Shown piece by piece: positions 6,455-56,274 of a stretch of 60,950 nucleotides of DNA. Below the pieces are notes generated by a model that was not told the DNA's origin, ran no database searches, and saw only the letters and a program-made list of their open reading frames with translations. Where the stretch lies: contig JANQGO010000162.1 in assembly GCA_028277285.1 (NCBI GenBank), positions 1 through 60,950 of the forward strand. The letters run 5' to 3'. Position 1 is the first letter of the stretch. The number at the start of each line of letters is the position of its first letter. The position numbers and the translations under genes were made by a program. Source of the DNA: Alphaproteobacteria bacterium. Lineage in GTDB: Bacteria; Pseudomonadota; Alphaproteobacteria; SP197.

Positions 6455-6464
6455 ACGTCACCAG

Positions 6465-6635
6465 GTTCTCCCTCTCCCCAGCGAGGGAGAGGGATGCGCA
6501 GGCTTGGGATCGTAAGATCCCTAGCCGTAGCTGGGTGAGGGGGGCTGGCGCGATGCCCTGGTCTAGATGTCTTTTTGCGCGCTGGCGCGCGACCCCTCAC
6601 CCCGGCCATCTCCCTCAAGGGGAGAGGGAGTCGAT
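6465..6635. repeat. cluster of REP-like GC-rich hairpins between convergent genes (see finding)
   Basis: Perfect 10-bp stem 6469-6478/6485-6494 (tccctctccc/gggagaggga). Stem 6506-6511/6516-6521 closes a GTAA loop, with outer ggct/agcc pairing. Long-range inverted repeat gggtgagggg 6533-6542 / cccctcaccc 6593-6602. Stem ctccctc 6610-6616 / gagggag 6624-6630. Confidence 0.55.
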
Positions 6636-7513: not shown

Positions 7514-8643
7514 CAGGCAGCGTCCTCCCAATCAGGGCTTTGCCACTCGCCCCGTACATCCGCGTCGTCTTCATCCGGCAAGTGACGCGCGCGCAAGGTC
7601 TCGAACCGGTCGGCCGGCGCCAATCGGGACAGCGCCCAGACCGCCATCGCGCGCACCAGGGGCGAGACATCGTCAAGGCGCGCCGCCGCCACATCGGCCA
7701 GCGCCGGATCGCTACTGTTGCCGATCGCGATCAGCACGTTGCGCACGAAGCGGTCCCGTCCTGTCCGCTTGATCGGCGAGCCGCTGAACAAGCTACGGAA
7801 GCCCGCGTCATCGAGAGCGGCCAGGTCGGCCAGGCGCGGCGCGGTCAGTTCGACGCGCGGCAGGAAAGCCGGTTCCCTTGCGGCAGCGGCGAACTTGTTC
7901 CACGGGCAGACCGCCAGGCAATCGTCGCAGCCATAGATCCGGTTACCCATGGGCACGCGAAACTCACGCGCGATGTGGCCCTTGTGTTCGATCGTCAAAT
8001 AGGAAAGGCAGCGTCGTGCGTCCAGACGGTAGGGCGCGGGGAACGCATCGGTCGGGCAGATATCCAAACACGCCCGGCATGAGCCGCAGTGGTCGGCCTC
8101 CGCTTCGTCGGGCGCAAGGTCCAACGTGGTGAAGATCTCGCCGAGGAACAGCCAGGAGCCGAACTGCCGCGACACCAGATTGGTGTGCTTGCCCTGCCAG
8201 CCGACCGGCGTGCGCGCGGCAAGCGGCTTTTCCATCACCGGCGCGGTGTCGACGAACACCTTGACCTCGCAACCCGTCGCGTCGACCAGACGCCGTGCCA
8301 CCGCCTTCAAGCGCTTCTTCATGACGTCGTGATAGTCGCGGCCCTGGGCATAGACGGAGATCACCGCGCGATCGCGGTTGCCGAGCCGTGCCATCGGGTC
8401 GATCGCCGGTCCATAGTTCGCGCCGACAACCAGAACGCTGCGCACCGCTGGCCAAAGCGTCGTCGGCGCGGCGCGCTCGTCGATACGGCGCTCGAGCCAG
8501 TCCATGTCGCCCGCATAGCCGGCCGACAAGAAGCTATCCAGACGCGCGCGGCCGACTGCTTCCGGTGCGGCGATGCCGGCCGTATCGAACCCGGCCTCGC
8601 GGGCATAAGTAAGAAGGGTGTCCCGGCGCGCCTCGGCGTCCAT
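7513..8643 (-). CDS. queG: tRNA epoxyqueuosine(34) reductase
   Basis: Trimmed to [11 protein letters not shown].. at 8641-8643 (ATGA overlap with the gst stop). It has the two 4Fe-4S motifs [13 protein letters not shown] and [13 protein letters not shown], followed by a HEAT-like C-terminus (VRAMAVWAL). Confidence 0.9.
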
Positions 8644-35082: not shown

Positions 35083-35792
35083 TAACGGTCAAACGCGCGA
35101 TGGTCCTGGCGGCAGGGCGCGGCGTGCGCCTGAAACCCGTGACCGATACGACACCCAAGCCGCTGGTCGAGGTCGCCGGGCGAACCCTGCTCGACCGCGC
35201 CCTCGATCGCTTCGCAGCGATGGAACTGGTGGTCGTCAACGCCCATCACCTGGCCGGTCAGGTGGCGGCAAGCCTGCAGCGACGGGCGCAACCGCCGAGC
35301 AGGTTGTCGCGTGAAACCGAACTGTTGGACACCGGCTTGGGTGTCAAGAACGCGCTTGGCCATTTGGGGCCGTGGCCCTTCTTTATCTCCAGCAGCGACA
35401 TTCTGATGACCGAAGGCCCGGGCGGTGACCCGCTGCAACGCCTGGCCGCCGCCTGGGATGATGACGCCATGGACGCGCTCTTGCTGGTGCAGCCGCGCGC
35501 CAAGGCCGGCGGTTTCGTCGCGCCCGGCGATTTCAATCTCGACCCCGAAGGCCGGCCAAGCCGCCGCGGCGATGCGCCTGCCGCCGACTACGTCTACACC
35601 AGTACGCAGTTGGTGCATCCGCGTCTCTTCGCCGACAGTCCCGACGCACCGTTTTCGTTCAATCTTCTTTGGGACAAGGCGATCGCCACCCGCCGCCTCT
35701 TCGCCATCGTGCACGATGGCGGCTGGTTCACTGTTGATACGCCGGAGAACCTGACCGCCGCGCCAGACTGGCTCGCACGCCATGGCGGCTAA
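35079..35792 (+). CDS. murU: nucleotidyltransferase, MurU-like (MurNAc-1-P uridylyltransferase)
   Basis: Trimmed to MITVKRAMVLAAGRGVRLKPVTDTTPKPLV, the sugar-nucleotidyltransferase G-loop. It has an ATGA overlap with amgK. Confidence 0.78.
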   Translation: MITVKRAMVLAAGRGVRLKPVTDTTPKPLVEVAGRTLLDRALDRFAAMELVVVNAHHLAGQVAASLQRRAQPPSRLSRETELLDTGLGVKNALGHLGPWPFFISSSDILMTEGPGGDPLQRLAAAWDDDAMDALLLVQPRAKAGGFVAPGDFNLDPEGRPSRRGDAPAADYVYTSTQLVHPRLFADSPDAPFSFNLLWDKAIATRRLFAIVHDGGWFTVDTPENLTAAPDWLARHGG

Positions 35793-38700
35793 GCTCTTCA
35801 CGATCGCGCCGGGCACGTCGTTCGTCGATGCGCTCGCAGCCGGTCTCTTGGAGCGGCACCGCGATCAGCCCGAACGGCTCGGCGAGACGCTGATCCTGGT
35901 GCCGACGCGTCGCGCCAGCCGCGCGTTACAGGAAGCCTTTGTGCGCCAAAGCGACGGAGCCGCGCTGATCTTGCCCGCCATGCAGCCGCTCGGTGATGTC
36001 GACGAAGACGACCTGATCGCCGACCTGCTGGAGATGGGCGAAGACGTCATCGACCTGCCGCCGGCCATTCCCATCCTGCAACGCCAGCTCTTGCTGACCT
36101 CCCTGGTGCGCCAGGCCGGCACCCAGGTCGGTGCCGGCAACGACGAACAGGCCGCGCGTCTGGCCCGCGATCTCGCCCATTTGCTCGACGAAGTTGAGAC
36201 GGCGGAGCTCGACTTCGATGCACTCGACGGCCTCGTCGAGGGCGATCTGGCGCGCCACTGGCAGACGACGCTCGCTTTCCTGCGCATCATCACCGAACAA
36301 TGGCCGCGGATTCTGCAGGAACGTGGTCTTGTCGATCCGGCGCAACGGCGCAGCGCCCTGATCGACGCGTTGGCCGCGCGCTGGACGCAGCAGCCGCCGG
36401 CGACACCGGTGATCGCCGCGGGCTCGACCGGCACCATACCGGCAACGGCACGTCTGATGGCAACCATCTTGGATCTACCCGAAGGCGCGGTGATCCTGCC
36501 CGGCCTCGACCGGCATCTTGCCGAGGACACCTGGGACGCCATCGACGACACCCATCCGCAGGCCGCGATCAAGGCGCTGCTCGGTCAACTCGACACGTCC
36601 CCCGCGGACGTCGCCGATTGGCCCTACCCCGATACGGCCGGGGTACCGCGCGGCGATGCGGGCCGTCAGGTCTTGCTGTCGGATGCCATGCTGCCGGCGG
36701 TGGCGACGACCGCGTGGCAGCGCCTGGACCCCGCCGCTGACAGCGTGTTTGACGGCCTGAACCTGATCGTCTGCGCGCACCAGCGCGAGGAGGCGCAGGT
36801 CGCCGCGCTCATCATGCGCCACGCCCTGCTGACGCCGGCCAAGACCGCCGCGCTGGTCACGCGCGATCGTGGCGTGGCACGCCGTGTGGCGGCGGAGCTG
36901 AAGCGCTGGGGGATCGAGGTCGACGATTCCGCCGGCATGCCGCTCGCCGAAAGCGTGCCCGGCACCTTCCTGCGCCTGATCGCCGAGGTCGCGGTCGAAC
37001 GCGCCGCGCCGATACCGCTGTTGGCGCTCTTGAAACACCCGCTTGCCGCACTCGGCCGCGAGCCCGCGCACCTGCGCACCCAGATCCGCCAGATCGAACG
37101 GCTGGCCCTGCGCGGCCCGCGGCCGGGCTCCGGCTTGTCCGGACTGCGCGACGCGCTGACCCGCCGGCCGGTCGATGCCGACCTCGTCGCCCTGATCGAC
37201 GACATGGCGGAAGCCTTCACGCCGCTCGAGGCCGCGCTCGCCAACCGCCGGGGTTCGCTGCGCGACATGGTCAAGGCCCACATCGCCTGCGCCGAGCGTC
37301 TGGCGACACGCGACAACGAGACCGGCGCTGCGGTGTTGTGGTCGGGCGACGCCGGTGAGGCAGCCCACCGGTTCGTCCAGGAACTGCTGGATCAGGCGGA
37401 CATTCTGACCGGGGCCGAGGGCAACACCTATGCCGGCCTCTTCACCACCTTGATGCAGGGCCATGTGGTCCGGCCCCGCTTCGGGCGTCACCCCCGGCTA
37501 TACATCTGGGGGCCGCTCGAGGCGCGCATGCAGCACGCCGACCTCGTCCTGATCGGCGGATTGAGCGAAGGCAGCTGGCCGCCCGAGGTTCCGGCCGATC
37601 CCTGGATGAGCCGGCCGATGCGCGCGGCCTTCGGCCTGCCGTCTCAGGAACGGCGGATCGGACAGGCGGCGCACGACTTTGCCCAGGCCGCGGCCGGCGC
37701 CGAGGTCGTGATGCTGCGTTCCGACAAGGTCGCCGGCTCGCCCGCGGTTCCCGCGCGCTGGTTGATGCGTCTGGAGACCCTGTTGGACGCCTGGGGCAAA
37801 CGCCACCTGCTGGATCACGACGCCGGCCTGTGGCGCGCCCGCGCCGCGCTGATCGACCGTCCCGCCCTGATCGAACCCGCCAAGCCGCCGCAGCCGGCGC
37901 CGCCGGTCGCCGACCGGCCACGCCGCCTTTCCGTCACCCAAGTCGATACCTGGCTGCGCGATCCATATGCGATCTACGCCCGGTTCGTGCTGGGACTGAA
38001 GGCGCTCGACCCGCTGGACGAGGACCCGGCCGCCGCCGAGCGCGGCACCTTCGTCCACGAGGCGCTCGACCGCTTCGTCAAGACCTGGCCGGACACCCTG
38101 CCCGACGACGCGCTCGAGCAATTGTTGGCGATCGGCCGCGACGTGCTCGGCCCGACGCTCAGCCAACCGGCGGTCGCCGGATTCTGGTGGCCGCGGTTCG
38201 AACGGGCCGCCGCCTGGTTCATCGAACGCGAACACGAACGCCGCCACGAGCTCACCGCCATCGTGACGGAGTCGAAAGCGGAACTCAGTCTCGACGCGCC
38301 AGCCGGCCCGTTCACCCTCTCCGCCAAGGCCGACCGCCTGGAGCGGCGCGCCGACGGCACGGTCGGCGTCATCGACTACAAGACCGGCACCGCGCCCAGC
38401 ACGACGTTACTCAAGGCGGGCGGCGCGCCGCAACTGCCGCTGGAGGCGGCGATGATCCGCGAGGGCGCGTTCGACGCGCTGCCGGAACGCACCATCGCCG
38501 CGCTTGAACACTGGCAGCTCCAGGGCGGCGACCCGCCGGGTCAGATCAAGCGGCTCGCCGGCTCCGACGCCGACGACCTGGCGGCGGAGTCCCTGGCCAA
38601 CCTGAGCGACCTCGTGGCGGCCTTCGACCGGGCAGAGACCGCCTATCTCGATCACCCCGACGGCGCCGACGCCAGGGCCTATGACGACTATCTGCTGGTC

Positions 38701-41700
38701 GCGCGCACGGACGAACATCGCTTGGGCGCTGAATCGGCGCTGCCCGATTTGGAGGTCGCGCCACCGACGCGCGAGGGTGTTTCGCTGATGCCGGCCGACG
38801 ACGTGCAGAGGCTCTTGTCGGACCCCGAAACATCCGTCTGGGTGGCGGCCTCGGCGGGCACCGGCAAGACCAAGGTGCTGACCGATCGCGTGCTGCGGCT
38901 GTTGCTGAAGGGCGTCGCGGCCGACCGCATCCTCTGTCTGACGTTCACCCGCGCGGCGGCGGCGGAAATGGCCGTGCGCATCCAGCGTTCCCTTGGCGCC
39001 TGGGCTATGCTTAACGAGCCCGACCTCGCGACCGCGCTCGAAGGCCTGACCGGCCGGCCGCCGGATGAGGAAACTCTGATCCGCGCGCGCACCCTGTTTG
39101 CCGCGACGCTCGACACGCCGGGCGGCCTTCAGATCGCCACCATCCACGCCTTCTGCCAGTCGCTCCTGGGCCGGTTCCCGTTGGAGGCGCGCGTCGCGCC
39201 GCACTTCGACCTGGCCGATGAACGCACGGCGGCGGAACTGCTGCGCGATGCCCGCGACCGCGTGTTGTCGTCGGTCGCCCGAGGCGGCGGCGATGCGTTG
39301 ACCGACGCGCTCGCCGTTGTCGCCGCCAATGCCGCCGAAGGCACGTTCGATTCGATCATCCAAGAGATCTGCGGCGGCGCCGGACGCTTCGATGCGAACC
39401 TTGCGCGCCATGGCGGTCTCGACGGCACGCTGGATGCGGTCGCCAATGCGTTGGGGATCGCGCGCGGTGTCAATGCAGAGCATGTCCTGCGCCAAGCCGC
39501 GACCTCGGGCGCGCTCGACGAGCCCGGCCTGCGTCAAGCGGTCGCTGCCATGGAAGGCGGCAAGACCACGGACAAGAAAGCGGCGGCGTCGATCGATACG
39601 TGGCTGGCGGGCGATGATGACGCCCGCGTTGCCGGGTTCGCCGACTATTGCCTTGCCTTTCTGACCAAGGAAGGGTCGCCCCGCGCCAACCTGCCGACCA
39701 AGGACGTCGCCGCAGCCTTACCGGCAGCCGCCAGGGCGTTCGCGAACGAGCAGGCACGGCTGATCGGCATTACGGATACGCTCAAGGCCGTGCACGTCTT
39801 CGAACGCACCGCCGCTGTCCTGAGGCTGGGCCACGCCGTGCTGCAACGGTTCCGCGACAACAAGACACGCCGCGCCCTGCTTGACTATGACGATCTGATC
39901 AACCAGACGAACGCGTTGTTGGCCCAGCCGGACATCACGCCGTGGGTGCTCTACAAACTCGACGGCGGTATCGATCACGTGATGGTCGACGAAGCCCAGG
40001 ACACCAGCCCGGCGCAGTGGCAGATCGTCATCGAACTGGTGCGCGAGTTCTTCGAGGGCGAGACATGGGACGACGACATTCGGACCCTGTTCGTCGTCGG
40101 CGACGAGAAACAATCGATCTTCAGTTTCCAGGGAGCGGACCTCGACGCCCTGCGCAACGTGCACGACCGGCTGGAGGCGCTGGCCACGGGCGAACAGGGC
40201 CGCTGGCGCGAAGACGATCTGAACCGTTCTTTCCGTTCGGTGTCGGCCGTGTTGACCGTGGTCGACAAGGTCTTCGAACAGACGAACGCGCGCGCCGGCG
40301 TTGTCGACGATGGCGCCATGCTGGAGCACCTGGTGCAGCGCGCCGGCCATGGCGGCCTGGTCGAGCTGTGGCCGGTGGTCGGGGATCTCGACGACGAGGC
40401 GCCCGATCCCTGGCAGGCACCGCTCGGCTATCACGAGCCGGAAGACCGCAGCACGCGGCTTGCGCGCGAAATCGCCGCGACGATCTATAGTTGGATCGAA
40501 CGCGACGAGTTGCTGGTTTCCAAGGGCAGGCCGATCACGGCCGGCGACATCATGGTGCTGGTGCCGCGACGCACGCGTTTTGTCCACGCGCTCGTGCGCG
40601 AGCTCAAACAGAAGAACGTGGCGGTCGCCGGTGTCGACCGCATGGACCTGACCGGCCAGATCGCCGTGCGCGATCTGATGATGCTGGGTTACGCCTGCCT
40701 TATGCCCGAGGACGATCTGGCCCTGGCCGCCGTGCTCAAAGGTCCGCTGGCGGATTTCGACGACGACCTGCTCTATGACCTCGCCCGCAACCGGCAGGGC
40801 TGGACGCGCGACGGGCGCGGCGACGAACCGCTCGAAAGCCTGTGGTCGGCCTTGCGAAAGCGCGCGAACGACGATCCCGCGTTTCGCGCCGCCCATGATT
40901 GGTTCGCGAGCCAACTGGCTCAGGCCGACTTCGAGCGGCCGTTCGAGTTCTATAGCCGCATCCTGTCGCAGACCTGTCCGGCACCACGTGGCGACATGGT
41001 GGGACCACGGCTGAGCGGGCGCGAGGCGATGTTGCGCCGCCTTGGCATCGAAGCCGAGGACCCGCTCGACGAGTTTCTCGCCGCGAGCCTGGACTATGAG
41101 CGCGAGCATGCGGCGTCACTGCAAGGTTTCCTCGCCTGGCTCGAGGCCGGCAGCGCGGAAATCAAGCGCGAGATGGAAGCCCGTCACGACATGGTGCGCA
41201 TCATGACCGTGCACGGCGCCAAGGGTCTGCAGGCGCCGATCGTCTTTCTGGTCGACGACATGGCGACCCGGCCGCCACGCACCGACAACCTCGTCTGGCT
41301 CGACGGCGGTCAGCTGCCGATCTGGCCCGGCAGCGCGGGCAAGCGCGACCGCGTGTCCGATGAGGCCATCGAGGATCGCAACGCGCGCCAGGACGAGGAG
41401 CGCCGCCGGCTTCTCTACGTCGCTCTGACGCGCGCCGAAGACCGGCTTTATGTCACAGCGGCCTCCAGCACCGGCGAGAGCAAGGCCGAAAGTTGGCACG
41501 GCATGGTCGAGGCAGGCATGGCGGAGATCGCCGAGCCCTTCGACTTCGAAGCCGCCAGCGATCCCGCATGGAAAGGGCAGGCGCTGCGTTATCAGACCCC
41601 GCAGGCAGCAGTCGCGGCGGCGAAACCAAGCAAGACAGACGACGGTGACATCGCCGCGAAACTGGAAGCCGAGCTCCTTGAGATCCCCCCGGTCGAACGG

Positions 41701-42276
41701 GACACGGAGCGTCCGGTCAATCCGTCGCGCCTGGGCGGCAACGACCGCGCTCCGGATTCGCCGTTGGGCAAGTCCGGTGGCAAGGCCGCGGCACGCGGCC
41801 GCGTCATCCATCGCCTGCTGGAACGCCTGCCGGATGTTCCACCGGACGGGCGCGCGATTGCCGGTCAACGCCTGCTCGACCACGTGGCGCATGATTGGCC
41901 GGCGGCAGACAAAGCCGAGGCGCTCGTCTCGGTCATGGCGATCCTGGACGATCCTGCGTTCGGCGCCCTTTTCGGACCCGGCAGCCGGGCCGAGGTGCCG
42001 ATCATCGGGCGGGTCGGCGAGTTGGTTATCGCGGGTCAGGTGGACCGCCTGATCGTCGGTGACGGCATGGTTGATATTGTCGACTACAAAACCAACCGTA
42101 CGCCGCCAGAGGAAGCACGAGCGGCGCCCGAGGCCTATTTGCGCCAAATGGCCGCTTATCGGGCCGTTTTGCGCCAGATTTACCCGGATTTTGTGGTGAA
42201 TTGCCTGCTTTTGTGGACGGCCGGACCGGTTATGCAGACGCTTCCACAAGACCTTCTGGATGCATATGCGCCATGA
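35782..42276 (+). CDS. addB-addA: double-strand break repair AddB and AddA modules encoded as one continuous 2164-codon ORF
   Basis: Residues 1 to ~1000 are alphaproteobacterial-type AddB (MAAKLFTIAPGTSFVDALA...; nuclease motif GVIDYKTGTAPS). From ~1003 onward it is AddA: UvrD-type Walker A AASAGTGKTKVLT, ..VDEAQDTSP.., ..MTVHGAKGLQAP.. and the C-terminal nuclease DIVDYKTNR. There is no in-frame stop at the junction. An internal ATG at 38788 with GAGGG upstream could start AddA separately. Confidence 0.85.
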   Translation: MAAKLFTIAPGTSFVDALAAGLLERHRDQPERLGETLILVPTRRASRALQEAFVRQSDGAALILPAMQPLGDVDEDDLIADLLEMGEDVIDLPPAIPILQRQLLLTSLVRQAGTQVGAGNDEQAARLARDLAHLLDEVETAELDFDALDGLVEGDLARHWQTTLAFLRIITEQWPRILQERGLVDPAQRRSALIDALAARWTQQPPATPVIAAGSTGTIPATARLMATILDLPEGAVILPGLDRHLAEDTWDAIDDTHPQAAIKALLGQLDTSPADVADWPYPDTAGVPRGDAGRQVLLSDAMLPAVATTAWQRLDPAADSVFDGLNLIVCAHQREEAQVAALIMRHALLTPAKTAALVTRDRGVARRVAAELKRWGIEVDDSAGMPLAESVPGTFLRLIAEVAVERAAPIPLLALLKHPLAALGREPAHLRTQIRQIERLALRGPRPGSGLSGLRDALTRRPVDADLVALIDDMAEAFTPLEAALANRRGSLRDMVKAHIACAERLATRDNETGAAVLWSGDAGEAAHRFVQELLDQADILTGAEGNTYAGLFTTLMQGHVVRPRFGRHPRLYIWGPLEARMQHADLVLIGGLSEGSWPPEVPADPWMSRPMRAAFGLPSQERRIGQAAHDFAQAAAGAEVVMLRSDKVAGSPAVPARWLMRLETLLDAWGKRHLLDHDAGLWRARAALIDRPALIEPAKPPQPAPPVADRPRRLSVTQVDTWLRDPYAIYARFVLGLKALDPLDEDPAAAERGTFVHEALDRFVKTWPDTLPDDALEQLLAIGRDVLGPTLSQPAVAGFWWPRFERAAAWFIEREHERRHELTAIVTESKAELSLDAPAGPFTLSAKADRLERRADGTVGVIDYKTGTAPSTTLLKAGGAPQLPLEAAMIREGAFDALPERTIAALEHWQLQGGDPPGQIKRLAGSDADDLAAESLANLSDLVAAFDRAETAYLDHPDGADARAYDDYLLVARTDEHRLGAESALPDLEVAPPTREGVSLMPADDVQRLLSDPETSVWVAASAGTGKTKVLTDRVLRLLLKGVAADRILCLTFTRAAAAEMAVRIQRSLGAWAMLNEPDLATALEGLTGRPPDEETLIRARTLFAATLDTPGGLQIATIHAFCQSLLGRFPLEARVAPHFDLADERTAAELLRDARDRVLSSVARGGGDALTDALAVVAANAAEGTFDSIIQEICGGAGRFDANLARHGGLDGTLDAVANALGIARGVNAEHVLRQAATSGALDEPGLRQAVAAMEGGKTTDKKAAASIDTWLAGDDDARVAGFADYCLAFLTKEGSPRANLPTKDVAAALPAAARAFANEQARLIGITDTLKAVHVFERTAAVLRLGHAVLQRFRDNKTRRALLDYDDLINQTNALLAQPDITPWVLYKLDGGIDHVMVDEAQDTSPAQWQIVIELVREFFEGETWDDDIRTLFVVGDEKQSIFSFQGADLDALRNVHDRLEALATGEQGRWREDDLNRSFRSVSAVLTVVDKVFEQTNARAGVVDDGAMLEHLVQRAGHGGLVELWPVVGDLDDEAPDPWQAPLGYHEPEDRSTRLAREIAATIYSWIERDELLVSKGRPITAGDIMVLVPRRTRFVHALVRELKQKNVAVAGVDRMDLTGQIAVRDLMMLGYACLMPEDDLALAAVLKGPLADFDDDLLYDLARNRQGWTRDGRGDEPLESLWSALRKRANDDPAFRAAHDWFASQLAQADFERPFEFYSRILSQTCPAPRGDMVGPRLSGREAMLRRLGIEAEDPLDEFLAASLDYEREHAASLQGFLAWLEAGSAEIKREMEARHDMVRIMTVHGAKGLQAPIVFLVDDMATRPPRTDNLVWLDGGQLPIWPGSAGKRDRVSDEAIEDRNARQDEERRRLLYVALTRAEDRLYVTAASSTGESKAESWHGMVEAGMAEIAEPFDFEAASDPAWKGQALRYQTPQAAVAAAKPSKTDDGDIAAKLEAELLEIPPVERDTERPVNPSRLGGNDRAPDSPLGKSGGKAAARGRVIHRLLERLPDVPPDGRAIAGQRLLDHVAHDWPAADKAEALVSVMAILDDPAFGALFGPGSRAEVPIIGRVGELVIAGQVDRLIVGDGMVDIVDYKTNRTPPEEARAAPEAYLRQMAAYRAVLRQIYPDFVVNCLLLWTAGPVMQTLPQDLLDAYAP

Positions 42277-42783: not shown

Positions 42784-42800
42784 GCGCGTTGGGTGCCGGC

Positions 42801-44180
42801 ATGACAGACGGCGGTCACACCGGCGGCGCTGACGAGGTCGCGGCGTTTCTGGAGCATTATCCGGAAACCCGCTGGGTCGATGCGATCATCCCCGACCTCT
42901 GCGCCATTCCGCGCGGCAAGCGGCTCGACGTCTCCGGCCTGAAGAAGGTCTTCGAGACGGGCATGGGACTGCCCGGCTCGACCTATGTCATGAACATCCT
43001 GGGCGAGAACGTCGACAGCACGGGGCTCGGACCGCCGGACGGCGATCCCGACTACCCATGTTTCGGCGTGCCCGGCACGCTGGCACCGGTGCCGTGGGTC
43101 GGGCCGGAGCAGGCCCAGGTGCTGATGACCATGAAGAACGATGCCGGCGAGCCCTATTGGCTCGATCCGCGCGTCATCGCCGGGCGCATGGTCGATCGGA
43201 TTGCCGCGCTGGGCTACACACCCGTCGTCGCGATCGAGTTGGAGTTCTACCTGATCGATCCGGAGACCGACGAGCTCGGCCGCCCCAAGCTGGCGCGCTC
43301 ACCCTTAACCGGCAAGCGCCCGCGCGAGACCCAGGTCTATCTGATGGACGAGCTCGACGCGTTCGCGCCGGTCCTGAACGACATCATCGATACCTGCCGC
43401 CAGCAGAACGTGCCGGCCGATGTCGCGACCATCGAATACGCGCCCGGCCAGTTCGAGATCAATCTGAACCACGTATCCGATCCGGTCGTCGCGTGCGATC
43501 ACGCGTTCCTGATGAAACGCGCGGTCAAGGGTGTGGCCGCGCGTCATGGCCTGGTCGCGACCTTCATGGCGCGGCCGTTCCGCAAGACCTCGACCAATGG
43601 CACGCACATTCATCTGAGCCTGTTGGACGGCGACGGCAGAAACGTCTTCGATGACGGCGGCAAGGACGGCAGCGATCTGTTGCGCCACGCCATCGGCGGC
43701 CTTGCCGAGACCATGGCCGAGGCCATGCCGATCTGGGCGCCGAACGCCAACTCCTATCGGCGCATCAGCCCGGTCGGCTGGGTGCCGCTGGCGCCGACCT
43801 GGGGCTACAACAACCGCTCCGTGGCGATCCGCGTGCCGAGCGGTGAGCCGACGTCACGGCGTTTGGAGCACCGCCCCGCCGGCGCCGACGCCAATCCCTA
43901 TCTGGTCATGGCGGCGACACTGGCCGGCGTGCACCACGGCCTCACGAACAAGGTCGATCCCGGCAAGCCGATCGTCGGCGATGCCGCCCAGCAGGTGCCA
44001 CCCAGCCTGCCGGCGATCTGGGTCGACGCGCTGCGCGCCTTCGACGACGCCAAGATCCTTCCGGATTACTTCGGTGCCGAATACTGGGATATCTACAGCA
44101 AGATCCGCTGGTCGGAGTTCCACGAGTTCAACGACCACATCTCCGCGCTCGAATACGACCGCTTCCTGCGCCTGGTTTGA
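42801..44180 (+). CDS. glutamine synthetase family protein (type I-like, gamma-glutamyl-amine synthetase/PuuA-like)
   Basis: About 459 aa from the ATG at 42801 (TTG 42789 is possible). It has the GS catalytic-domain pattern ..EYAPGQFEINL.., ..KPF....NGTHIHLSL.. and ..NSYRR..P...AP....WGYNNRSVAIRVP. Confidence 0.85.
   Translation: MTDGGHTGGADEVAAFLEHYPETRWVDAIIPDLCAIPRGKRLDVSGLKKVFETGMGLPGSTYVMNILGENVDSTGLGPPDGDPDYPCFGVPGTLAPVPWVGPEQAQVLMTMKNDAGEPYWLDPRVIAGRMVDRIAALGYTPVVAIELEFYLIDPETDELGRPKLARSPLTGKRPRETQVYLMDELDAFAPVLNDIIDTCRQQNVPADVATIEYAPGQFEINLNHVSDPVVACDHAFLMKRAVKGVAARHGLVATFMARPFRKTSTNGTHIHLSLLDGDGRNVFDDGGKDGSDLLRHAIGGLAETMAEAMPIWAPNANSYRRISPVGWVPLAPTWGYNNRSVAIRVPSGEPTSRRLEHRPAGADANPYLVMAATLAGVHHGLTNKVDPGKPIVGDAAQQVPPSLPAIWVDALRAFDDAKILPDYFGAEYWDIYSKIRWSEFHEFNDHISALEYDRFLRLV
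44031..44180 (+). repeat. left copy of a direct repeat (the 3' end of the glutamine-synthetase-like gene; att-like)
   Basis: 44082-44180 matches 45753-45851 with 6 mismatches in 99 nt. 44105-44170 is identical to 45776-45841 (66 nt). Weaker in-frame similarity extends back to 44031 / 45703. Confidence 0.9.
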
Positions 44181-45702
44181 CTGCTGTTTGGCATAGTCGG
44201 TTTTCGGTCGGAAGTGCCCAGCACTGACTGTGGCCAACGAATAGAGCTGGCCATGATTGGCCTTCGTGTTTATGTGTGCATAGTATTGTTTGTTCTAGAC
44301 CAATAGTGTTCAACTAATGGTTGCCATTCTTGTAAGAGGGGCTAAGACTGTAGTTGCTCAAAAGTCCTCTACTGTAGGTGTAGCAGAGCCAATATCCTGA
44401 ATGCCTATGCGCTCGGCAATCACAGCTAGACTGGATCACTAGGTTGGCCAGCCGGAAACACGACCTTCTATTCTGCGACAAAGACCTAAGTATGCTCATC
44501 CGCAGCTACGAACCTGCCATTCGGAGCGAAGTTGACGGATGGGAGCGAAATCGAGTCTTGTCTTCTAGTGAACCTGACTTGATCGCTTACTTGGTAGACA
44601 AGTACACGCTTGATCCTCCTCGGCTGCACCGGGACCAAATACACATCGAGGATGAAGGGGAGCGGAAGATCGACGTAAGTGGTCGATTCGACTACGGTGC
44701 AGCTTACGGAGATGGCGGGCCACATTTCGTGCCCGGATCTTACGTTACCGTCGCCGTTCCTTTTGAAGGCGACCCAGACTTATTCGAGTTTCGAGCCTCA
44801 ACATACACCCTCAATCCACCTCGCGGTCGAATCTCCGCTCCACATTTGCTTATCTCGTTTTCCGACGTGAAGCTTGAACCTGAACGCTTAACTCAAGAGA
44901 TTGACCGCAATCTAGACAGCATTGAACAGCATCTAGGATGGATCACTAGCGACTGTGAACAGTGGAACAGTCGTGTCGAGAACATCGCTCGTCAGTGCTT
45001 AGACACTCGCAAGGGTCGCCTTCTAGAACAAGCTGACATGGTTAGCGCCCTTGGAATCCCGATTAGGAAACGGGCCGATAGTCCCGGTAGCGTGTCGATT
45101 CCCGTTAGTCGAAAAAAACGTCCAATCGAACTACCAAGTGTACCAACTGAAGCGTTCAAGCCCGAGCCTGCGCTTCCCAATGAAGACTACGATTTCATTC
45201 TCGATGTCATCGACCGATTGGCTCTTTCAATTGAACGAAGCCCAAGCACGTTCGTTCACATGAACGAAGAACAGATCCGCGACTTCATACTCGTAAGCCT
45301 AAATGGCCACTACGAAGGAGATGCCACCGGAGAAACGTTCAATTCTGAAGGAAAAACTGACATTCTGATTCGGGCAAATGGCAAAAACGCATTCATCGCA
45401 GAGTGCAAGATTTGGCAAGGGCCGCGAGCATTCCATTCAGCAATTGATCAAGTGCTCGGATACCTAACCTGGAGGGACACCAAGGCGGCAGTGGTGGTGT
45501 TCAGCAAGAACGCAGATTTCACCAATGTACTGACGAGCATCGCGTCAACCGTTCCTGAACACACGCATTTCAAGCAAGAACTTCGCAGGATTAGCGATAC
45601 GCACGTTCGTTACTTGTTTCGCCAGAAAGCGGACCCGGCCAGAGATCTATACTTAGCAGTACAGGTCTTCAACATACCGCGACCAAGCGCCAGTTAGGAC
45701 GT
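44181..45702. mobile_element. AT-richer insertion (islet) without mobility genes, bounded by the duplicated gene 3' end
   Basis: Spot-counted lines give ~45-50% GC against ~68% in the flanking gene. The repeat period is 1671 bp. It carries a single ORF, and no integrase or transposase ORF appears in any frame. Confidence 0.6.
44444..45697 (+). CDS. hypothetical protein with C-terminal PD-(D/E)xK-type nuclease motif (candidate defence/nuclease protein)
   Basis: 417 aa from the TTG at 44444 (ATG 44492 is an alternative). The C-terminus reads EEQIRDFILVSLNGHYEGDATGETFNSEGKTDILIRANGKNAFIAECKIWQGPRAFHSAIDQVLGYLTWRD. D306, E320-x-K322 and a following Q-helix fit the restriction-endonuclease-like core. 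I did not recognise the N-terminal ~280 aa. Confidence 0.7.
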   Translation: MASRKHDLLFCDKDLSMLIRSYEPAIRSEVDGWERNRVLSSSEPDLIAYLVDKYTLDPPRLHRDQIHIEDEGERKIDVSGRFDYGAAYGDGGPHFVPGSYVTVAVPFEGDPDLFEFRASTYTLNPPRGRISAPHLLISFSDVKLEPERLTQEIDRNLDSIEQHLGWITSDCEQWNSRVENIARQCLDTRKGRLLEQADMVSALGIPIRKRADSPGSVSIPVSRKKRPIELPSVPTEAFKPEPALPNEDYDFILDVIDRLALSIERSPSTFVHMNEEQIRDFILVSLNGHYEGDATGETFNSEGKTDILIRANGKNAFIAECKIWQGPRAFHSAIDQVLGYLTWRDTKAAVVVFSKNADFTNVLTSIASTVPEHTHFKQELRRISDTHVRYLFRQKADPARDLYLAVQVFNIPRPSAS

Positions 45703-45851
45703 CTAACTGCTTCGACGACACTAACGCCCGGCCATTCAATCTCAGCAGCGAGTGCTGGGACATCTACAGCAAGAGCCGCTGGTCGGAGTTCCACGAGTTC
45801 AACGACCACATCTCCGCGCTCGAATACGACCGCTTCCTGCGATTGGTGTGA
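45703..45851 (+). pseudogene. orphan 3' fragment of a glutamine-synthetase-like gene (right copy of the direct repeat)
   Basis: In frame it reads ..CFDDTNARPFNLSSECWDIYSKSRWSEFHEFNDHISALEYDRFLRLV*. The intact gene has ..AFDDAKILPDYFGAEYWDIYSKIRWSEFHEFNDHISALEYDRFLRLV*. It has no start and no upstream GS sequence. Confidence 0.85.
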
Positions 45852-45858
45852 ATCTGCT

Positions 45859-46470
45859 CTAGCGTGTCGCAATCGCGACGCCGGAGCCGATCAGCACCGT
45901 GCCCGTCACCTGCTGCAGGCGCCGCATGGCCTTTGCCGACGCCATGAAGCGGCGCGCCCGGTCGACCAGCAGGACCGCGGCGCCATAGATCAGGTAAGAA
46001 ACCCCGGCGACCACCGCGGCCAGGACGACGAAATCGCCGGCGCCGACTTGAGTGATGTCAATGAAGGTCGGCAAGAGCGCGCCGAAGAACAGGATGGCCT
46101 TCGGGTTGCCCAGCGTGGCCAGCATGCCCATCGCCAGGTCGCGCCACAGGACGCCGCGTGTTTGCGTACCCACCGCATAGGCGCCTTCCTTGCCAATGAT
46201 GGCGCGGTAGCCGCGCCAAATCAGGTAAGCGGCGCCGGCATACTTCACGACCTCGAACAGCGGTCCCATGGTCGCCGCGATCGCCAGCAGGCCGACGAAG
46301 GCAATGCCGAGGAAAACGATGTCGGCCAAGGCAAGGCCGGTGATGACCGCAACGCCCGCCTTGGGGCCGCCACCCAGCGTGCGCGAGACGACAATCGCCA
46401 GCCCCGGGCCGGGCAAGAGCGTCCACAAGAACATGCTGACGGCAAAGATGACGAGGTCGTCAAAGTGCAT
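45859..46470 (-). CDS. LysE/RhtB family amino-acid translocator
   Basis: 203 aa and about 6 TMS. The N-terminal pattern FLWTLLPGPGLAIVVSRTL.GG is typical of LysE-family exporters. Confidence 0.85.
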   Translation of the reverse strand: MHFDDLVIFAVSMFLWTLLPGPGLAIVVSRTLGGGPKAGVAVITGLALADIVFLGIAFVGLLAIAATMGPLFEVVKYAGAAYLIWRGYRAIIGKEGAYAVGTQTRGVLWRDLAMGMLATLGNPKAILFFGALLPTFIDITQVGAGDFVVLAAVVAGVSYLIYGAAVLLVDRARRFMASAKAMRRLQQVTGTVLIGSGVAIATR

Positions 46471-52454: not shown

Positions 52455-53726
52455 ATGGAACCTGCCAAGAGGGAGATTTGCGTTTTGCAGCACAACCCAG
52501 CAGACAGGACGTTCGTTCGGTTCGGTCGCCTCGCGCGGCCTGTTGCCTTTGTCGGCTGCCACCACCTGACCCATGATCTTCCTGATTACTTTCGCGGATG
52601 GTCGATCGCACAGGTTTCGGGGCAAGCGGTGCCGGATCCCATCATCACCGTCGCCAGGACGGCACGAGGCTACAGCCTGACCGCGTCGTGGCTGGATGAG
52701 CCGCTTCAGCGTCGCGATGAGGTCGACTGTGTTTGCGCCCTCATTGCCGAACTTGTCCGTGCCAGCGTCGACAGCGATCCCGGAAGCCTGTGCCTTCATG
52801 CCGCCGCGGCGCGGATTGCCGGGCATCTGGTCGTGTTCCCCAATCGGTACCGAGCCGGCAAGTCGCTGCTTTCCGCATGCCTGGCGGCGCACGGCGCACG
52901 CCTTCTCGCCGACGATGTGGTGCCGCTTGGGGCTCAAGACGGCCATGCCCTGGCGTCAGGTATCTTGCCCCGCCTTCGCCTGCCGCTGCCGGACAATCTC
53001 GAGCGGCGCACGCGGGCCTTTATCGCGCGCCATCGTGGACCCAGGAACGACCACTACGCCTATCTGGACCTGCCGCCCAGCCGTCTTGCGCCCCGCGGCG
53101 AAAGTGCGGCGATCGACGGCATCGTCCTGCTCGATCGACGGGACGGCGGTGCTGCCAGCTTGGAGGCAATCGGACAAAGCGAAGCTCTGCGTCAGATCAT
53201 TCTACAGAATTTCGCCCGCGAGCCTGACGCCGGGCAGATCCTGGAGCGGCTGCAGCGGATCGTCGGCCAAGCGACGTGCCACCGCTTGACCTATGCTCGC
53301 GCCGATGACGCCGCACGGCTGCTCCTCGACATCTTTTCTCAACCCGCCGCGGCGTCAGAGCAGGCACCGACGCCCGCGCAGGCCCGATCGATCGGCACAA
53401 CCGTTGACGTTGGGGCCGGGCGTGGCAGCTTCGTTCGCCGCGACGGCTTGCGTGAGACCCACATTGACGGCGAACACTATCTGGCGGACGCCCGGAACGG
53501 CGCGATCCACCACCTCGATCCGATCGCGACCGCCATCTGGCGGCTTCTGGACGAAGCGACCGGCGAAGACGAGGTCGTCGCGGCCCTTACCGACGCCTTT
53601 CCTGGCGTGCCCGGCGAAACCGTAGCCCGCGATGTCGCGGCGCTGCTCGACGACCTTCGCCAACGCGACCTGATCGTTGCCATGGACGAGAACGTCGATG
53701 CGCATTGCCGCAGCTTGCGACCTTAG
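52455..53726 (+). CDS. HprK-related kinase-like domain fused to a C-terminal PqqD-family (RRE-type) domain
   Basis: 423 aa. LCLHAAAARIAGHLVVFPNRYRAGKSLLSACLAAHGARLLADDVVPL resembles the HAxxV...GxSGxGKS(T)L...G..L..DD core of HPr-kinase-related kinases, and GKS is retained at residues 135-137. The C-terminus HYLADARNGAIHHLDPIATAIWRLLDEATGEDEVVAALTDAFPGVPGETVARDVAALLDDLRQRDLIV fits the PqqD pattern (LN..a..iW.l.dG..t..ei...l......e...Dv..fl..L...gli). Confidence 0.65.
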   Translation: MEPAKREICVLQHNPADRTFVRFGRLARPVAFVGCHHLTHDLPDYFRGWSIAQVSGQAVPDPIITVARTARGYSLTASWLDEPLQRRDEVDCVCALIAELVRASVDSDPGSLCLHAAAARIAGHLVVFPNRYRAGKSLLSACLAAHGARLLADDVVPLGAQDGHALASGILPRLRLPLPDNLERRTRAFIARHRGPRNDHYAYLDLPPSRLAPRGESAAIDGIVLLDRRDGGAASLEAIGQSEALRQIILQNFAREPDAGQILERLQRIVGQATCHRLTYARADDAARLLLDIFSQPAAASEQAPTPAQARSIGTTVDVGAGRGSFVRRDGLRETHIDGEHYLADARNGAIHHLDPIATAIWRLLDEATGEDEVVAALTDAFPGVPGETVARDVAALLDDLRQRDLIVAMDENVDAHCRSLRP

Positions 53727-54568
53727 CCGCGTTTTCGCGCCAGAATCTCGACCGGAACGGTGCGCCCTTCGGCAACCGCACGTGAGGAGTTGGCCATCAT
53801 GACGGCCGCTCCCTCGCCATGGATCAGGGGAACCGAGCGGTGCGGCGGCTTTTCGCCGCGTTCAACAAGCGCCTTGGAACGTGCCCCGAAATCTTTGGAT
53901 TCGGCGGCCGTGTCACGGACCTGGACGATCAGGAATCCGGCGGCTTCCAGGCCGGACCGGGTCGCCTCCACGCTCGTCAGAAAGTTTGTCTCGGCCGTCT
54001 GTGCCCAAGGCAGCGGGTAATCCGGCTCCGGGCCGTCGCCGCGCGCGAACTCCGACAAGACCAGCCGGGCACCTGGTTTCAGGACCCGCGCGAACTCGGC
54101 GTAGAGGCCGTCCTTGTCGGCGATGTTCATCGAGACGTTCATGGTGTAGGCGGCATCGAACGTGCCGTCGGCGAACGGCATCGCCAGCGCGTCGCCGACC
54201 TCGAACGACACGCGGTCGTCCAAACCGAGCAGCGTTGTGAGCGAGCGCGCGACCTCGCAGAACACCGGCGTCAGATCGACACCCGTTACCCGGCAACCGA
54301 ACCGGTCGGCCACGTAACGCGCCGGCCCGCCGATACCGCTGCCGACATCCAGGACATGGTCGGAGGCGAGGAGCGACAGCAGGTTGGCGACATCCTCGGT
54401 CGCCTCAAGCCCACGACCGTGAAACTGGTCATAGGGCGCAAGTGCGGCGATGGTCGGCCGGTCCGGGTCGGCGCCGTCATCCCGCAATGCCGCCGCCAGC
54501 CGGTCGAAGAGATCGCCGCTGGTGTAGTGGCTTGTGACGTCTTTGCTCATGGCGAGAACGTCATACAA
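53723..54568 (-). CDS. class I SAM-dependent methyltransferase
   Basis: 281 aa. It has motif I VLDVGSGIGGPARYVA and post-I CRVTGVDLT, followed by ..FDAAYTMNVSMNI.. It is convergent with the kinase-like gene, and the stop codons overlap (53723-53726). Confidence 0.85.
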   Translation of the reverse strand: MYDVLAMSKDVTSHYTSGDLFDRLAAALRDDGADPDRPTIAALAPYDQFHGRGLEATEDVANLLSLLASDHVLDVGSGIGGPARYVADRFGCRVTGVDLTPVFCEVARSLTTLLGLDDRVSFEVGDALAMPFADGTFDAAYTMNVSMNIADKDGLYAEFARVLKPGARLVLSEFARGDGPEPDYPLPWAQTAETNFLTSVEATRSGLEAAGFLIVQVRDTAAESKDFGARSKALVERGEKPPHRSVPLIHGEGAAVMMANSSRAVAEGRTVPVEILARKRG

Positions 54569-54956
54569 ATCAATTGCTCCGAAAACCCCAAAAGCTGTTC
54601 CTTCGATGAATCCTAGGTACCAGCGCTAATCCGACATAACTCGATATTTTGGTGCATCACGCTCTGGCTAGAATGACCAACAGGCCCCGTGGCACGAGCT
54701 CCTTTAACCCAGGAAGTGTTCGATCAGTCGAACAGCCGGCAGCTTTCAGGCGGACCAAGCCAAAGGCTTCTAATCACGCGCCATCTAGACCACGACAGAT
54801 TTGACGCACCCACTGGACCTTCCGCCAAGCCTAAGCGTAACATTAGTTATTGAACCATCGAGTGTAGTAGGTCTGGCGTGAGTATGAATTTGCGAGAATT
54901 ACTTGAACGAGTCGCCATTCGATAGCTTTGCTTACACCATTTGAGAGGGGGATCAG

Positions 54957-55121
54957 ATGCGGAATTGGTCTCGAAGCAGATTTTTTGGCCTGATTGCAGC
55001 AATAGCGCTGAGCTTCGCAGTTTCTTCTTGTGACGATGACGGATCGGGAGACTCGGGCTCGTCCGACGAAGTGCTACAATTAGATGGTGGCCATGGAACT
55101 GGAGGTGGCAGTGGTGATTAG
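54957..55121 (+). CDS. putative 54-aa acidic mini-lipoprotein
   Basis: Not in the ORF track (under 60 aa). A strong RBS (GAGGGGG) lies 7 nt upstream. The translation is MRNWSRSRFFGLIAAIALSFAVSSC/DDDGSGDSGSSDEVLQLDGGHGTGGGSGD, i.e. a positive n-region, a hydrophobic core, the lipobox VSSC, and a D/G/S-rich mature part. Its stop is 6 nt before the next ATG. Confidence 0.5.
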   Translation: MRNWSRSRFFGLIAAIALSFAVSSCDDDGSGDSGSSDEVLQLDGGHGTGGGSGD

Positions 55122-55127
55122 AGTTAG

Positions 55128-56129
55128 ATGAAGTTACCGCTTACATTCGGAAACAGGCTGCTTTTAAGGTTCTTGTTACCGGGGGCTATAGTAGCCACTG
55201 GCTTAAGTCCACTTCTACACCTTCTCGCTGGAAGATTAAATGTTCCAGTCGATAGTTTATACTTGTTTCCTGCAACAACATTGATTTCCGGTTGGATACT
55301 CTCTCTATTTGATATGCCGATTTACATGATCATGGAAGGCCGCGCTCTTTGGCCTAAGTGGCTGAAAGAACGATGCATGAAAACACAAAGAAAAAAGCTA
55401 GATAGATGGATTTCCAAGGCTCGCAATTACGAGAAAAATGGCAATGAAGCTGAAGCAACCGAGATGGAAGTCAAAGCATACCGATATCCTATAGGTAATG
55501 GAAAATACAATTCAAACTCCGGCGTTCCTACAGTCGTATTGCCTACTGAACTTGGCAATGTAATCTACGGATATGAAACTTACTCGATGGTCAAGTACGG
55601 CGCAGATGGAGTTTTCTTCTGGGAGCGCATTTGGATGGGCTTGGACGCGGACCTCAGAAGGGAAATAGATGAGAGACAAGCAATTTGCGACAGCGCTGTT
55701 TACTCAAGCTTCTCCTGCTTTGTTAATACTATTCTTTTCTTGATTTTCTCAATTTTTCTTATGTTGTCATCTATTTTCAGTTTGGATTTGGCGAGCAATC
55801 TCACGGCCTGGCAGCGCGCCGTGGAGTTTTTGGTCGTGTCGCTGTTCTTTCTTGTTCTTTGGGGGGTGTTCTATCGAGCTGCAGTCAGCACAAACTTCCA
55901 ATTCGGAGAACGCTTGAAGGCTATGTTTGATTCTAATCTTGATAAGCTGGCGATAAGCGATGCATTACTTATGGTTAGCAAGCGAACGGGTGCCATATAC
56001 ACGACTACGTCCTTCGATCCTGACAATGTAATGGCAGCGTGGAGATACCTTCGTTGGCACAAATTCCGCCCACCTCAGGCCAAGTCGAACATAAATATTG
56101 AACACGCGAAAAAACAAAACAATAAATGA
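55128..56129 (+). CDS. hypothetical 4-TM membrane protein
   Basis: 333 aa in a ~40% GC islet (two spot-counted lines gave 38-40%). It has two N-terminal TM helices, a ~130-aa soluble loop (..PTELGNVIYGYETYSMVKYGADGVFFWERIW..), two more TM helices and a basic C-terminal tail. No domain was recognised. Confidence 0.65.
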   Translation: MKLPLTFGNRLLLRFLLPGAIVATGLSPLLHLLAGRLNVPVDSLYLFPATTLISGWILSLFDMPIYMIMEGRALWPKWLKERCMKTQRKKLDRWISKARNYEKNGNEAEATEMEVKAYRYPIGNGKYNSNSGVPTVVLPTELGNVIYGYETYSMVKYGADGVFFWERIWMGLDADLRREIDERQAICDSAVYSSFSCFVNTILFLIFSIFLMLSSIFSLDLASNLTAWQRAVEFLVVSLFFLVLWGVFYRAAVSTNFQFGERLKAMFDSNLDKLAISDALLMVSKRTGAIYTTTSFDPDNVMAAWRYLRWHKFRPPQAKSNINIEHAKKQNNK

Positions 56130-56274
56130 GTTAAGTTCCTATCCGAAAAAAAAACAATGCGGAATGCGTTGGCCATGAATGCGAGTATTCCAATAGTTCA
56201 ACATTTGGAGCACCAATTCAAGGTTCACGATTCTTCATGGCCTTGTCCAAAATTTCTTTGCTATCGTGTTCAGC

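Follow-up and report, generated by a model that had tools for sequence, protein, structure and literature searches.

We analysed a stretch of 60,950 nucleotides (nt) from an alphaproteobacterial genome assembly (contig JANQGO010000162.1, positions 1 to 60,950; hereafter the window), and focused on a gene at 44444-45697 that encodes a protein of 417 amino acids (aa) and lies alone on a small islet of low guanine-plus-cytosine (GC) content. The gene matches the family PDC-S54 over its full length, and on balance its product is probably an immune nuclease that works as one self-contained protein and has an exchangeable module for sensing or regulation. The gene would have arrived on a small foreign cassette through recombination into the 3' end of a glnA-like gene, and what we infer are the activity of the nuclease, its autoinhibition, its trigger and the outcome. 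We favour this reading because of the family membership, the conservation of a nuclease motif, the predicted order of the fold, the reuse of the two modules of the protein elsewhere, and the defence or mobile contexts of its homologues. A preliminary description of this DNA, made from its letters and its open reading frames (ORFs), had proposed a candidate one-gene defence system, and the family match, the conserved residues, the predicted core and the homologue contexts all support that proposal.

A search of the PADLOC-DB profiles gave one strong match, to PDC-S54 (E = 2.2e-146, 486 bits), which pairs residues 6-412 of the protein with positions 4-407 of the 410-position model. Pfam and NCBIfam searches of the whole protein returned no match, and sequence and profile searches of the PDB with the whole protein, its C-terminal domain (C domain) or its N-terminal module yielded only chance-level matches, such as MvcA, beta-glucosidase and coiled coils. 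Homologues are numerous: clustering at 90% identity leaves more than 4,000 of them and clustering at 50% identity 6,095 representatives, of which 2,304 have E < 1e-30; nearly all are about 410 aa long and align end to end, and the databases name them nothing beyond 'hypothetical protein'. These thousands of full-length homologues argue that the gene is real and not a chance ORF. With tblastn, members were found on plasmids of Proteobacteria, Planctomycetes, Actinobacteria, Cyanobacteria, Deinococcus, Spiroplasma and haloarchaea, as well as in two phage records, and relatives are encoded by 12 viral contigs of IMG/VR.

The phage defence candidates (PDCs) are a set of 145, released as untested by Payne et al. 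(2024; 10.1101/2024.01.29.577857) and identified because they lie embedded within BREX, DISARM and Type I restriction-modification (R-M) systems ('guilt by embedding') (10.1101/2024.01.29.577857). A later validation study tested several PDCs, PDC-S54 not being among them (PMC12881386). Our literature search found no paper that names PDC-S54, and the name is also absent from those parts of the supplements to 10.1101/2024.01.29.577857 that were accessible. Judged by its profile match, the gene adds a member to a candidate family that is already catalogued but uncharacterised and is not a new kind of system; the preliminary description could not place the protein in a named family from its sequence alone, and such a family exists. 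The window copy agrees with PADLOC PDC-S54 in its length, in the full-length match and in forming a single-gene unit, and the homologues lie within or beside R-M and other defence systems. In contrast to PDC-S54 generally, the window copy is part of no defence system and sits by itself between glnA-like and lysE-like genes.

The ORF lies where the preliminary description had placed it, with all of the quoted peptides present in its translation, and the numbering D306, E320 and K322 (plus Q336) is correct with a TTG start. The TTG at 44444 is the earliest start codon possible after the upstream stop, and no further usable start precedes the ATG at codon 17. Residues 6-16 are alignable with homologues, and L9 and F10 are kept in at least 90% of the 127 diverse family members (32-49% identical to the query) that made up our conservation set. 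Because L9 and F10 are conserved and are encoded only from the TTG, we take this codon as the true start. The public gene call (P0001), a protein of 401 aa that begins at the ATG, would drop both residues and is probably too short.

In the AlphaFold model of the whole protein (pLDDT 77), four parts can be distinguished (Table 1). Alignments of the N-terminal domain (N domain) bring out the conserved motifs LLF, PFxGDxxLF and NPPRG. The long helix behind it is a probable coiled-coil or oligomerisation element, and the two together are called the N module here. The linker has a conserved basic R-K-K-R-P patch and a PEPxLP motif, and the C domain holds a candidate active site made up of E275, D306, E320, K322, Q336 and Y340. 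G109, E264, E275, R279, E297, F299, D306, W324, G326, Q336, Y340 and D345 are invariant in the 127 members, and each of E320, C321 and K322 is retained by at least 90%. The regions differ in mean pairwise identity, with 25% in the N domain, 24% in the long helix, 33% in the linker and 50% in the C domain; on these alignments, the protein has a variable front and a conserved back.

The C domain very likely belongs to the PD-(D/E)xK superfamily, on the basis of its motif, its predicted topology and a series of sub-threshold matches, and we leave the subfamily unnamed. Modelled alone, it reached a pLDDT of 92.8 and a pTM of 0.89, with the elements H275-290, E298-300, E307-311, E314-323, H327-340 and E347-354 in full-length numbering. 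The residues follow the motif order of the superfamily, with an acidic residue in helix 1 (E275), a D predicted at the start of strand 2 (D306) and ExK on strand 3 (E320-x-K322); Q336...Y340 falls in the next helix. The alpha-beta-beta-beta-alpha-beta order, which the preliminary description had named as a check, is present in this predicted model. Its wording of a 'textbook' nuclease core stands for the predicted order and for the conservation of D306, E320, K322 and Q336, but goes too far in that no known nuclease is matched significantly.

Foldseek was run with the whole model against the PDB and BFVD and with the C-domain model against the PDB, and gave nothing below E = 1e-3. Weak matches of the whole model were McrC (7vsr_M, E = 0.038, probability 0.80; 6ut7_G), YaeQ and BsaWI, and, among viral models, several 'restriction endonuclease' and Mrr-domain proteins and one Vsr-type endonuclease; the C-domain model weakly matched NucS (E = 0.055, probability 0.57) and SfsA. 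Matches with low root-mean-square deviation (rmsd) were mostly PD-(D/E)xK nucleases. Those to polymerase beta/lambda, TUT7 and acetyl-CoA carboxylase had an rmsd of 12-19 Å and were discarded as 3Di artefacts, and a nucleotidyltransferase reading was ruled out by the absence of the GS...DxD motif.

We also scanned 27 diverse C domains singly against Pfam at a loose threshold. The matches, all sub-threshold, fell into 24 families, eight of which have the restriction-endonuclease fold (HSDR_N four times, pPIWI_RE_REase three times, Vsr twice, and PDDEXK_15, HSDR_N_2, NucS_C, Mrr_cat and NERD). As the restriction-endonuclease clan makes up less than 1% of Pfam, such a concentration is unlikely to have come about by chance; the scanned domains are mutually related, however, and their matches are not independent. 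The QxxxY pattern (Q336-xxx-Y340) that follows the ExK strand is invariant in the 127 members, and an hhalign alignment with AddB, of probability below 1%, sets D306 and ExK in register with the D and DYK motifs of AddB. We treat a RecB/Cas4 subfamily as a motif-level lead.

The contexts of 13 full-length homologues were then compared (Table 1). About nine of the homologues lie in defence islands, in Type I R-M operons, on plasmids or in prophages, in agreement with the association that the preliminary description had proposed to look for. No neighbour or partner gene recurs across the 13, and the PDC-S54 gene therefore behaves as a one-gene unit. The claim that it is the sole ORF of the islet and has neither methyltransferase nor antitoxin partner was confirmed, there being no other supported ORF on the islet and no methyltransferase or conserved partner for it in the window or in the 13 contexts. 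A toxin-antitoxin pair was ruled out for want of a conserved partner.

Members of the family are carried by plasmids and by phage or prophage genomes, some have transposases beside them, and they often adjoin toxin-antitoxin genes such as HigBA, HicB and PIN; this could also be read as the mark of a selfish or addiction-type nuclease of mobile elements, or of a phage weapon, from which the host draws no immune benefit. We think this quite unlikely. No conserved antitoxin or partner occurs in the 13 contexts, many copies lie within defence operons and not in element backbones, and a mobile location is typical of true defence genes too.

In one of these contexts (L111:8001-16942), a 59%-identical homologue stands at the border of a defence island next to trpA-trpB...trpF-accD-folC, housekeeping genes that in the window follow shortly after the islet on its downstream side. 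The shared trp/accD/folC neighbourhood may be a recurrent insertion site or a coincidence.

The N module had no match in Pfam, the PDB or Foldseek; its weak Pfam and PDB matches are coiled-coil families that correspond to the long helix (SlyX in 8 of 26 members, Myc-LZ, LPP and apolipoproteins). It also occurs as a protein of its own. A 201-aa protein on a Bosea plasmid matches positions 10-199 of the PDC-S54 model (E = 1e-32) and ends exactly at the end of the long helix, and standalone N-module proteins of about 200 aa form at least 124 clusters. The gene directly downstream of the Bosea protein, overlapping it or separated by at most about 15 nt, encodes a fusion of a Peptidase_C14 caspase and a DEAD-box helicase of roughly 1,000-1,040 aa, and the helicase is best matched by the Hachiman HamB models (HamB1, E = 5e-35). 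In 14 of the 20 metagenome loci with enough downstream sequence, and likewise in L090 and L093, the N-module gene immediately precedes one for a caspase-HamB-like helicase. Two more metagenome N-module loci keep a 33-aa remnant. The pairing of the Bosea plasmid is found again in a Caballeronia chromosome and, in convergent orientation, in one other contig; one example of the pair is WP_284173129/WP_284173131 of Bosea vestrisii. A divergent N module belongs to an operon with DUF6650 (Table 1), which adjoins a PDC-S31/DUF2971 gene, and another variant adjoins a 1,710-aa methylase-helicase on rhizobial plasmids.

The C domain is likewise found apart, behind a different N-terminus in 344-aa proteins (Table 1). 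The gene for the E. coli protein lies upstream of one for a 1,020-aa ResIII/Helicase_C helicase, beside a retron St85/PtuA locus, as a nuclease-helicase pair without a name. Both halves of PDC-S54 are, as these sequence matches indicate, shuffled among candidate immune systems. The earlier remark that the N-terminal region of about 280 residues matches nothing nameable thus stands for Pfam, the PDB and Foldseek, but the region contains an autonomous alpha/beta and coiled-coil module that also serves as a separate protein in other candidate systems.

The main rival explanation is a solitary Type IV-like (modification-dependent) or other sequence- or structure-specific restriction endonuclease, in which the N module would read DNA and guide the nuclease straight to foreign DNA, and neither autoinhibition nor abortive infection would be involved. 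A single nuclease that has no methyltransferase beside it is typical of Type IV enzymes such as Mrr and McrBC; the weak neighbours of the protein are of restriction type (McrC, Mrr-like, HSDR_N, BsaWI, Vsr); and some homologues adjoin Type I R-M operons, an arrangement also seen for Mrr and McrBC in E. coli. We nevertheless consider this explanation rather unlikely. Identity with a Type IV system was rejected, since the PADLOC mREase_IV models gave no match even at E up to 10 and the N module showed no match to the known readers of modified DNA or to DNA-binding folds; the family further differs from the Type IV enzymes in having no significant similarity to them and no GTPase/AAA+ partner. 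In addition, an N module that stands separately with protease-helicase fusions and in the DUF6650 operon suits a regulator or sensor better than a DNA reader.

Other known systems were compared in the same manner. In single-chain nucleases of the Shedu and Cap4 type, one polypeptide begins with a variable region for sensing or regulation and ends in a conserved PD-(D/E)xK nuclease domain, and PDC-S54, with its predicted nuclease, shares this outline of variable front and nuclease back. The N module and the arrangement of coiled coil and linker are not theirs, and identity with Shedu (SduA, DUF4263) or Cap4 was rejected, there being no DUF4263 match in Pfam and no Shedu or Cap4 match in PADLOC. 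HamA was likewise rejected, with no DUF1837/HamA match in Pfam or PADLOC at E up to 10, and no Hachiman-type helicase was found beside the window gene or directly adjacent to full-length homologues (UvrD-type helicases occur elsewhere in the L087 island). PDC-S54 resembles Hachiman in that the standalone N module takes the position of HamA upstream of HamB-like helicases and that a relative of the C domain precedes another helicase. It differs in that the window gene has no helicase and that, in the helicase-linked relatives, a caspase domain fused to the helicase replaces the nuclease. A D-ExK effector thought to be held inactive until a sensor fires is a further likeness to Hachiman, where HamA is combined with the Ski2-like HamB (Tuck et al. 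2024, PMC12278908).

The islet that carries the gene spans 44181-45748 (1,568 bp, about 1.57 kb), and GC content drops from about 0.65 to about 0.50 over approximately 44.2-45.7 kb. It is flanked by a direct repeat of 103 nt, the two copies of which are 93% identical (Table 1). Upstream lies the glnA-like gene (42789-44180; Pfam Gln-synt_C, E = 3e-97), and the right repeat copy stops 7 nt short of a lysE-like gene (45859-46470, minus strand). A terminator-like hairpin at 44249-44262 with a T-tail was found within the leader of the islet, downstream of the glnA-like gene. An Rfam scan of the islet gave no match, and a DNA search of the islet against plasmids returned weak coding similarity only.

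Relatives of the locus were sought by a scan with the GlnA-like protein, one genome per species. The closest relative found, L003, is an alphaproteobacterial metagenome-assembled genome with 94% identity in the GlnA-like protein and 87% at the nucleotide level, collinear on both sides. L003 has neither the islet nor the repeat between its glnA-like and lysE-like genes. The peptide encoded by the left repeat copy is identical to that of L003, and the right copy is 94% identical to the 3' end of the L003 glnA-like gene. At the position of the islet, L003 (7447-8650) carries DUF1330-like and HxlR-like genes, named by eye, of normal GC, and in more distant relatives the glnA-like gene is followed directly by folC, with no DUF1330-like, HxlR-like or lysE gene there. 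The 3' flank of the glnA-like gene is a variable spot in the lineage, and because this intergenic spot varies between relatives, we regard the islet as an insertion. A 103-nt duplication that spares the target gene is, as far as sequence can tell, the pattern of site-specific integration into a gene 3' end. The small foreign cassette among housekeeping genes that the preliminary description had seen is therefore borne out by the low GC, the flanking repeat and the absence from L003.

No integrase, recombinase or excisionase gene was found on the islet, and, lacking an integrase, the islet would be either what is left of a larger element or itself an element mobilised in trans. It is similar to the integrase-less, att-flanked islets of the cis-mobilizable element (CIME) kind in its foreign-GC cassette, in having the target's 3' end duplicated as a long direct repeat, and in the target being kept intact. 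Set against CIME-like remnants, it carries neither integrase nor excisionase, and mobilisation in trans or decay would have to be supposed. The small size of the islet, its lack of an integrase and of a recognisable promoter, and a right repeat copy that is already degenerating would fit a decaying relic of a larger integrated element, silent or inactive in the source genome. Such a relic is very improbable, given that the ORF is intact over 417 codons and the family-invariant residues are present, including the N-terminal LLF that needs the TTG.

A role as a housekeeping nuclease of DNA repair or recombination is hardly credible. Q336-xxx-Y340 recalls RecB/Cas4-type nucleases and one plasmid copy lies beside umuDC, but the gene is absent from the closest relative L003 and of foreign GC, the family is distributed patchily over bacteria, archaea, plasmids and phages, and the C domain has no profile similarity to the AddA/AddB nuclease domains of the window.

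Near the ends of the islet there is also an imperfect inverted repeat of 14 nt (44217-44230 / 45746-45759, 86% complementary). Its right arm spans the boundary between islet and repeat, and it is short enough to arise by chance.

For the immune nuclease that we favour, the following course of action is proposed. The C domain would be a metal-dependent PD-(D/E)xK nuclease effector with the site E275, D306, E320-x-K322 and Q336-xxx-Y340, and the N domain with the coiled-coil helix would evolve fast, act as sensor or regulator and bring the protein into oligomers. Jointly with the basic linker, which is conserved and predicted to be disordered, the N module would hold the nuclease silent until infection is signalled. 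A phage cue would then free the nuclease, invading and/or host DNA would be cut, and phage replication would stop, either by restriction or by abortive infection. More tentatively, and with only a modest chance of being right, the N module could be a previously undescribed unit that senses infection or serves as a safety catch and can be moved between systems, with at least three outputs, namely the fused nuclease, the caspase-HamB-like helicase (with the N module in the place of HamA) and the DUF6650 operon. The linker (R-K-K-R-P ... PEPxLP) might then be the release point, for example as a proteolytic or displacement switch that sets the nuclease free, and PDC-S54 would be a mechanistic bridge between Hachiman-like protease-helicase systems and single-chain nucleases.

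Several points weigh against an immune nuclease. PDC-S54 is so far a catalogued candidate family, and we infer outright that the N module acts as a sensor, as well as what the trigger and the substrate would be. No structural or profile match to a known nuclease is significant, the best Foldseek E values being 0.02-0.04 and the PDB and Pfam searches empty, and hhalign of the C domain against RecB-type nuclease domains (AddA/AddB of the window and their relatives) gave a probability below 1%. The window copy is solitary among housekeeping genes, as are the homologues in two of the 13 contexts (L089 and L112), and its local context gives no support. A promoter scan of the islet found no sigma-70 consensus promoter.

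Table 1. Positions and surroundings of the PDC-S54 gene, its islet, its homologues and loci sharing one of its halves (X, homologue; IS, insertion sequence)
Feature	Position	Strand	Remarks
Left repeat copy, attL-like border	44078-44180	+	Functional 3' end (last 33 codons and stop) of glnA-like gene
Low-GC leader of islet	44181-44443	+	263 nt; 5' of PDC-S54 gene
PDC-S54-family gene	44444-45697	+	417 aa, TTG start, stop codon 45695-45697
N-terminal alpha/beta domain, residues 1-145	44444-44878	+	AlphaFold: three helices (within 15-54), then five strands (67-141)
Long single helix, residues 146-203	44879-45052	+	58 residues; AlphaFold H146-203
Linker, residues 204-245	45053-45178	+	Predicted disordered; pLDDT <50 at 205-227
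C-terminal PD-(D/E)xK-type domain, residues 246-417	45179-45694	+	Candidate, from motif conservation and domain model
Catalytic-candidate codons, TTG numbering	D306 = 45359-61; E320 = 45401-03; K322 = 45407-09; Q336 = 45449-51	+	
Further C-domain codons	E275 = 45266-68; Y340 = 45461-63	+	
Spacer between PDC-S54 stop and right repeat	45698-45748	+	51 nt
Right repeat copy, attR-like border	45749-45851	+	Displaced non-functional glnA-like 3' end, changes Y->C and I->S
Homologue context	L086		HsdM, X, HsdS, TIR_2, LD_cluster2, ThsB_TIR, AIPR, HsdR (X embedded)
Homologue context	L001		IS3, X, unknown gene, Type I R-M
Homologue contexts	L002, L110		Abi_2 immediately upstream; KAP NTPase or HsdR nearby
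Homologue context	L087		ThsB_TIR, UvrD helicases, Type III-like R-M
Homologue context	L111		Island edge with TIR-STAND, AbiJ, IS, resolvase; abuts trpA...accD-folC
Homologue context	L088		Transposases, DruA fragment, resolvase, ParA
Homologue context	L107		Adjoins phage head and portal genes
Homologue context	Thauera plasmid		HsdS, HigBA, restriction endonuclease
Homologue context	Paludisphaera plasmid		umuDC, PD-(D/E)xK gene, methyltransferase
Homologue context	Phage NatCom_35866		Homologue gene near one genome end
Homologue contexts	L089, L112		Solitary among housekeeping genes, as window copy
N module with caspase-helicase	L090:6986-10700, L093:8001-11749, L094:8001-11627, L113-L131		Hachiman-like two-gene candidate, protease replacing nuclease
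Divergent N module (48% identity)	L136:443-3887, L138:3440-5483		Operon: 288 aa, N module, DUF6650 (E = 7e-20), 464 aa
C domain with different N-terminus, 344 aa	L091:6473-10898 (E. coli plasmid pEC_CBJ3C), L109:5467-6501 (Pantoea plasmid)		PDC-S54-type nuclease domain, E = 9e-38

Three further observations were made in passing. A second low-GC islet occupies 54650-56230 of the window (GC 0.45 against 0.65), between a 281-aa ORF (53723-54568, minus strand; methyltransferase-like by eye) and a trpF-like gene. Its single ORF (55128-56129, plus strand) encodes 333 aa, is hydrophobic or membrane-like by eye and has no Pfam or PADLOC match; no direct repeat of at least 25 nt flanks the islet, and the ORF may be another lone foreign cargo gene. 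At 35782-42276 (plus strand), the addB-like and addA-like genes read as a single uninterrupted ORF of 2,164 aa with both nuclease motifs (GVIDYKT and VDIVDYKT...QMAAY). Near the 70%-identical homologue of L107 (Logan SRR21120499_65946), a 1,167-aa ORF on the minus strand (5055-8558) joins Cas9-type domains and a lambda-family portal, with matches to Cas9_a, HNH_4 (E = 4e-21), RuvC_III (E = 3e-24) and the portal family PF05136 (E = 5e-91). It could be a real fusion or an artefact of assembly or gene calling.

PDC-S54 is a large family that extends over bacteria, archaea, plasmids and phages and has no Pfam domain and no structure, and the window copy is a minimal, clean example of it, one gene on a 1.57-kb cassette, suited to cloning. 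What the present analysis adds is a candidate domain anatomy, in which a module for sensing or regulation is followed by a coiled coil, then by a basic linker and finally by a D-ExK-QxxxY nuclease, together with the link between the N module and the caspase-HamB-like helicases. The gene would otherwise be an ordinary accessory gene; if validated, PDC-S54 would represent a widespread single-protein defence system and bring with it a new portable regulatory module.

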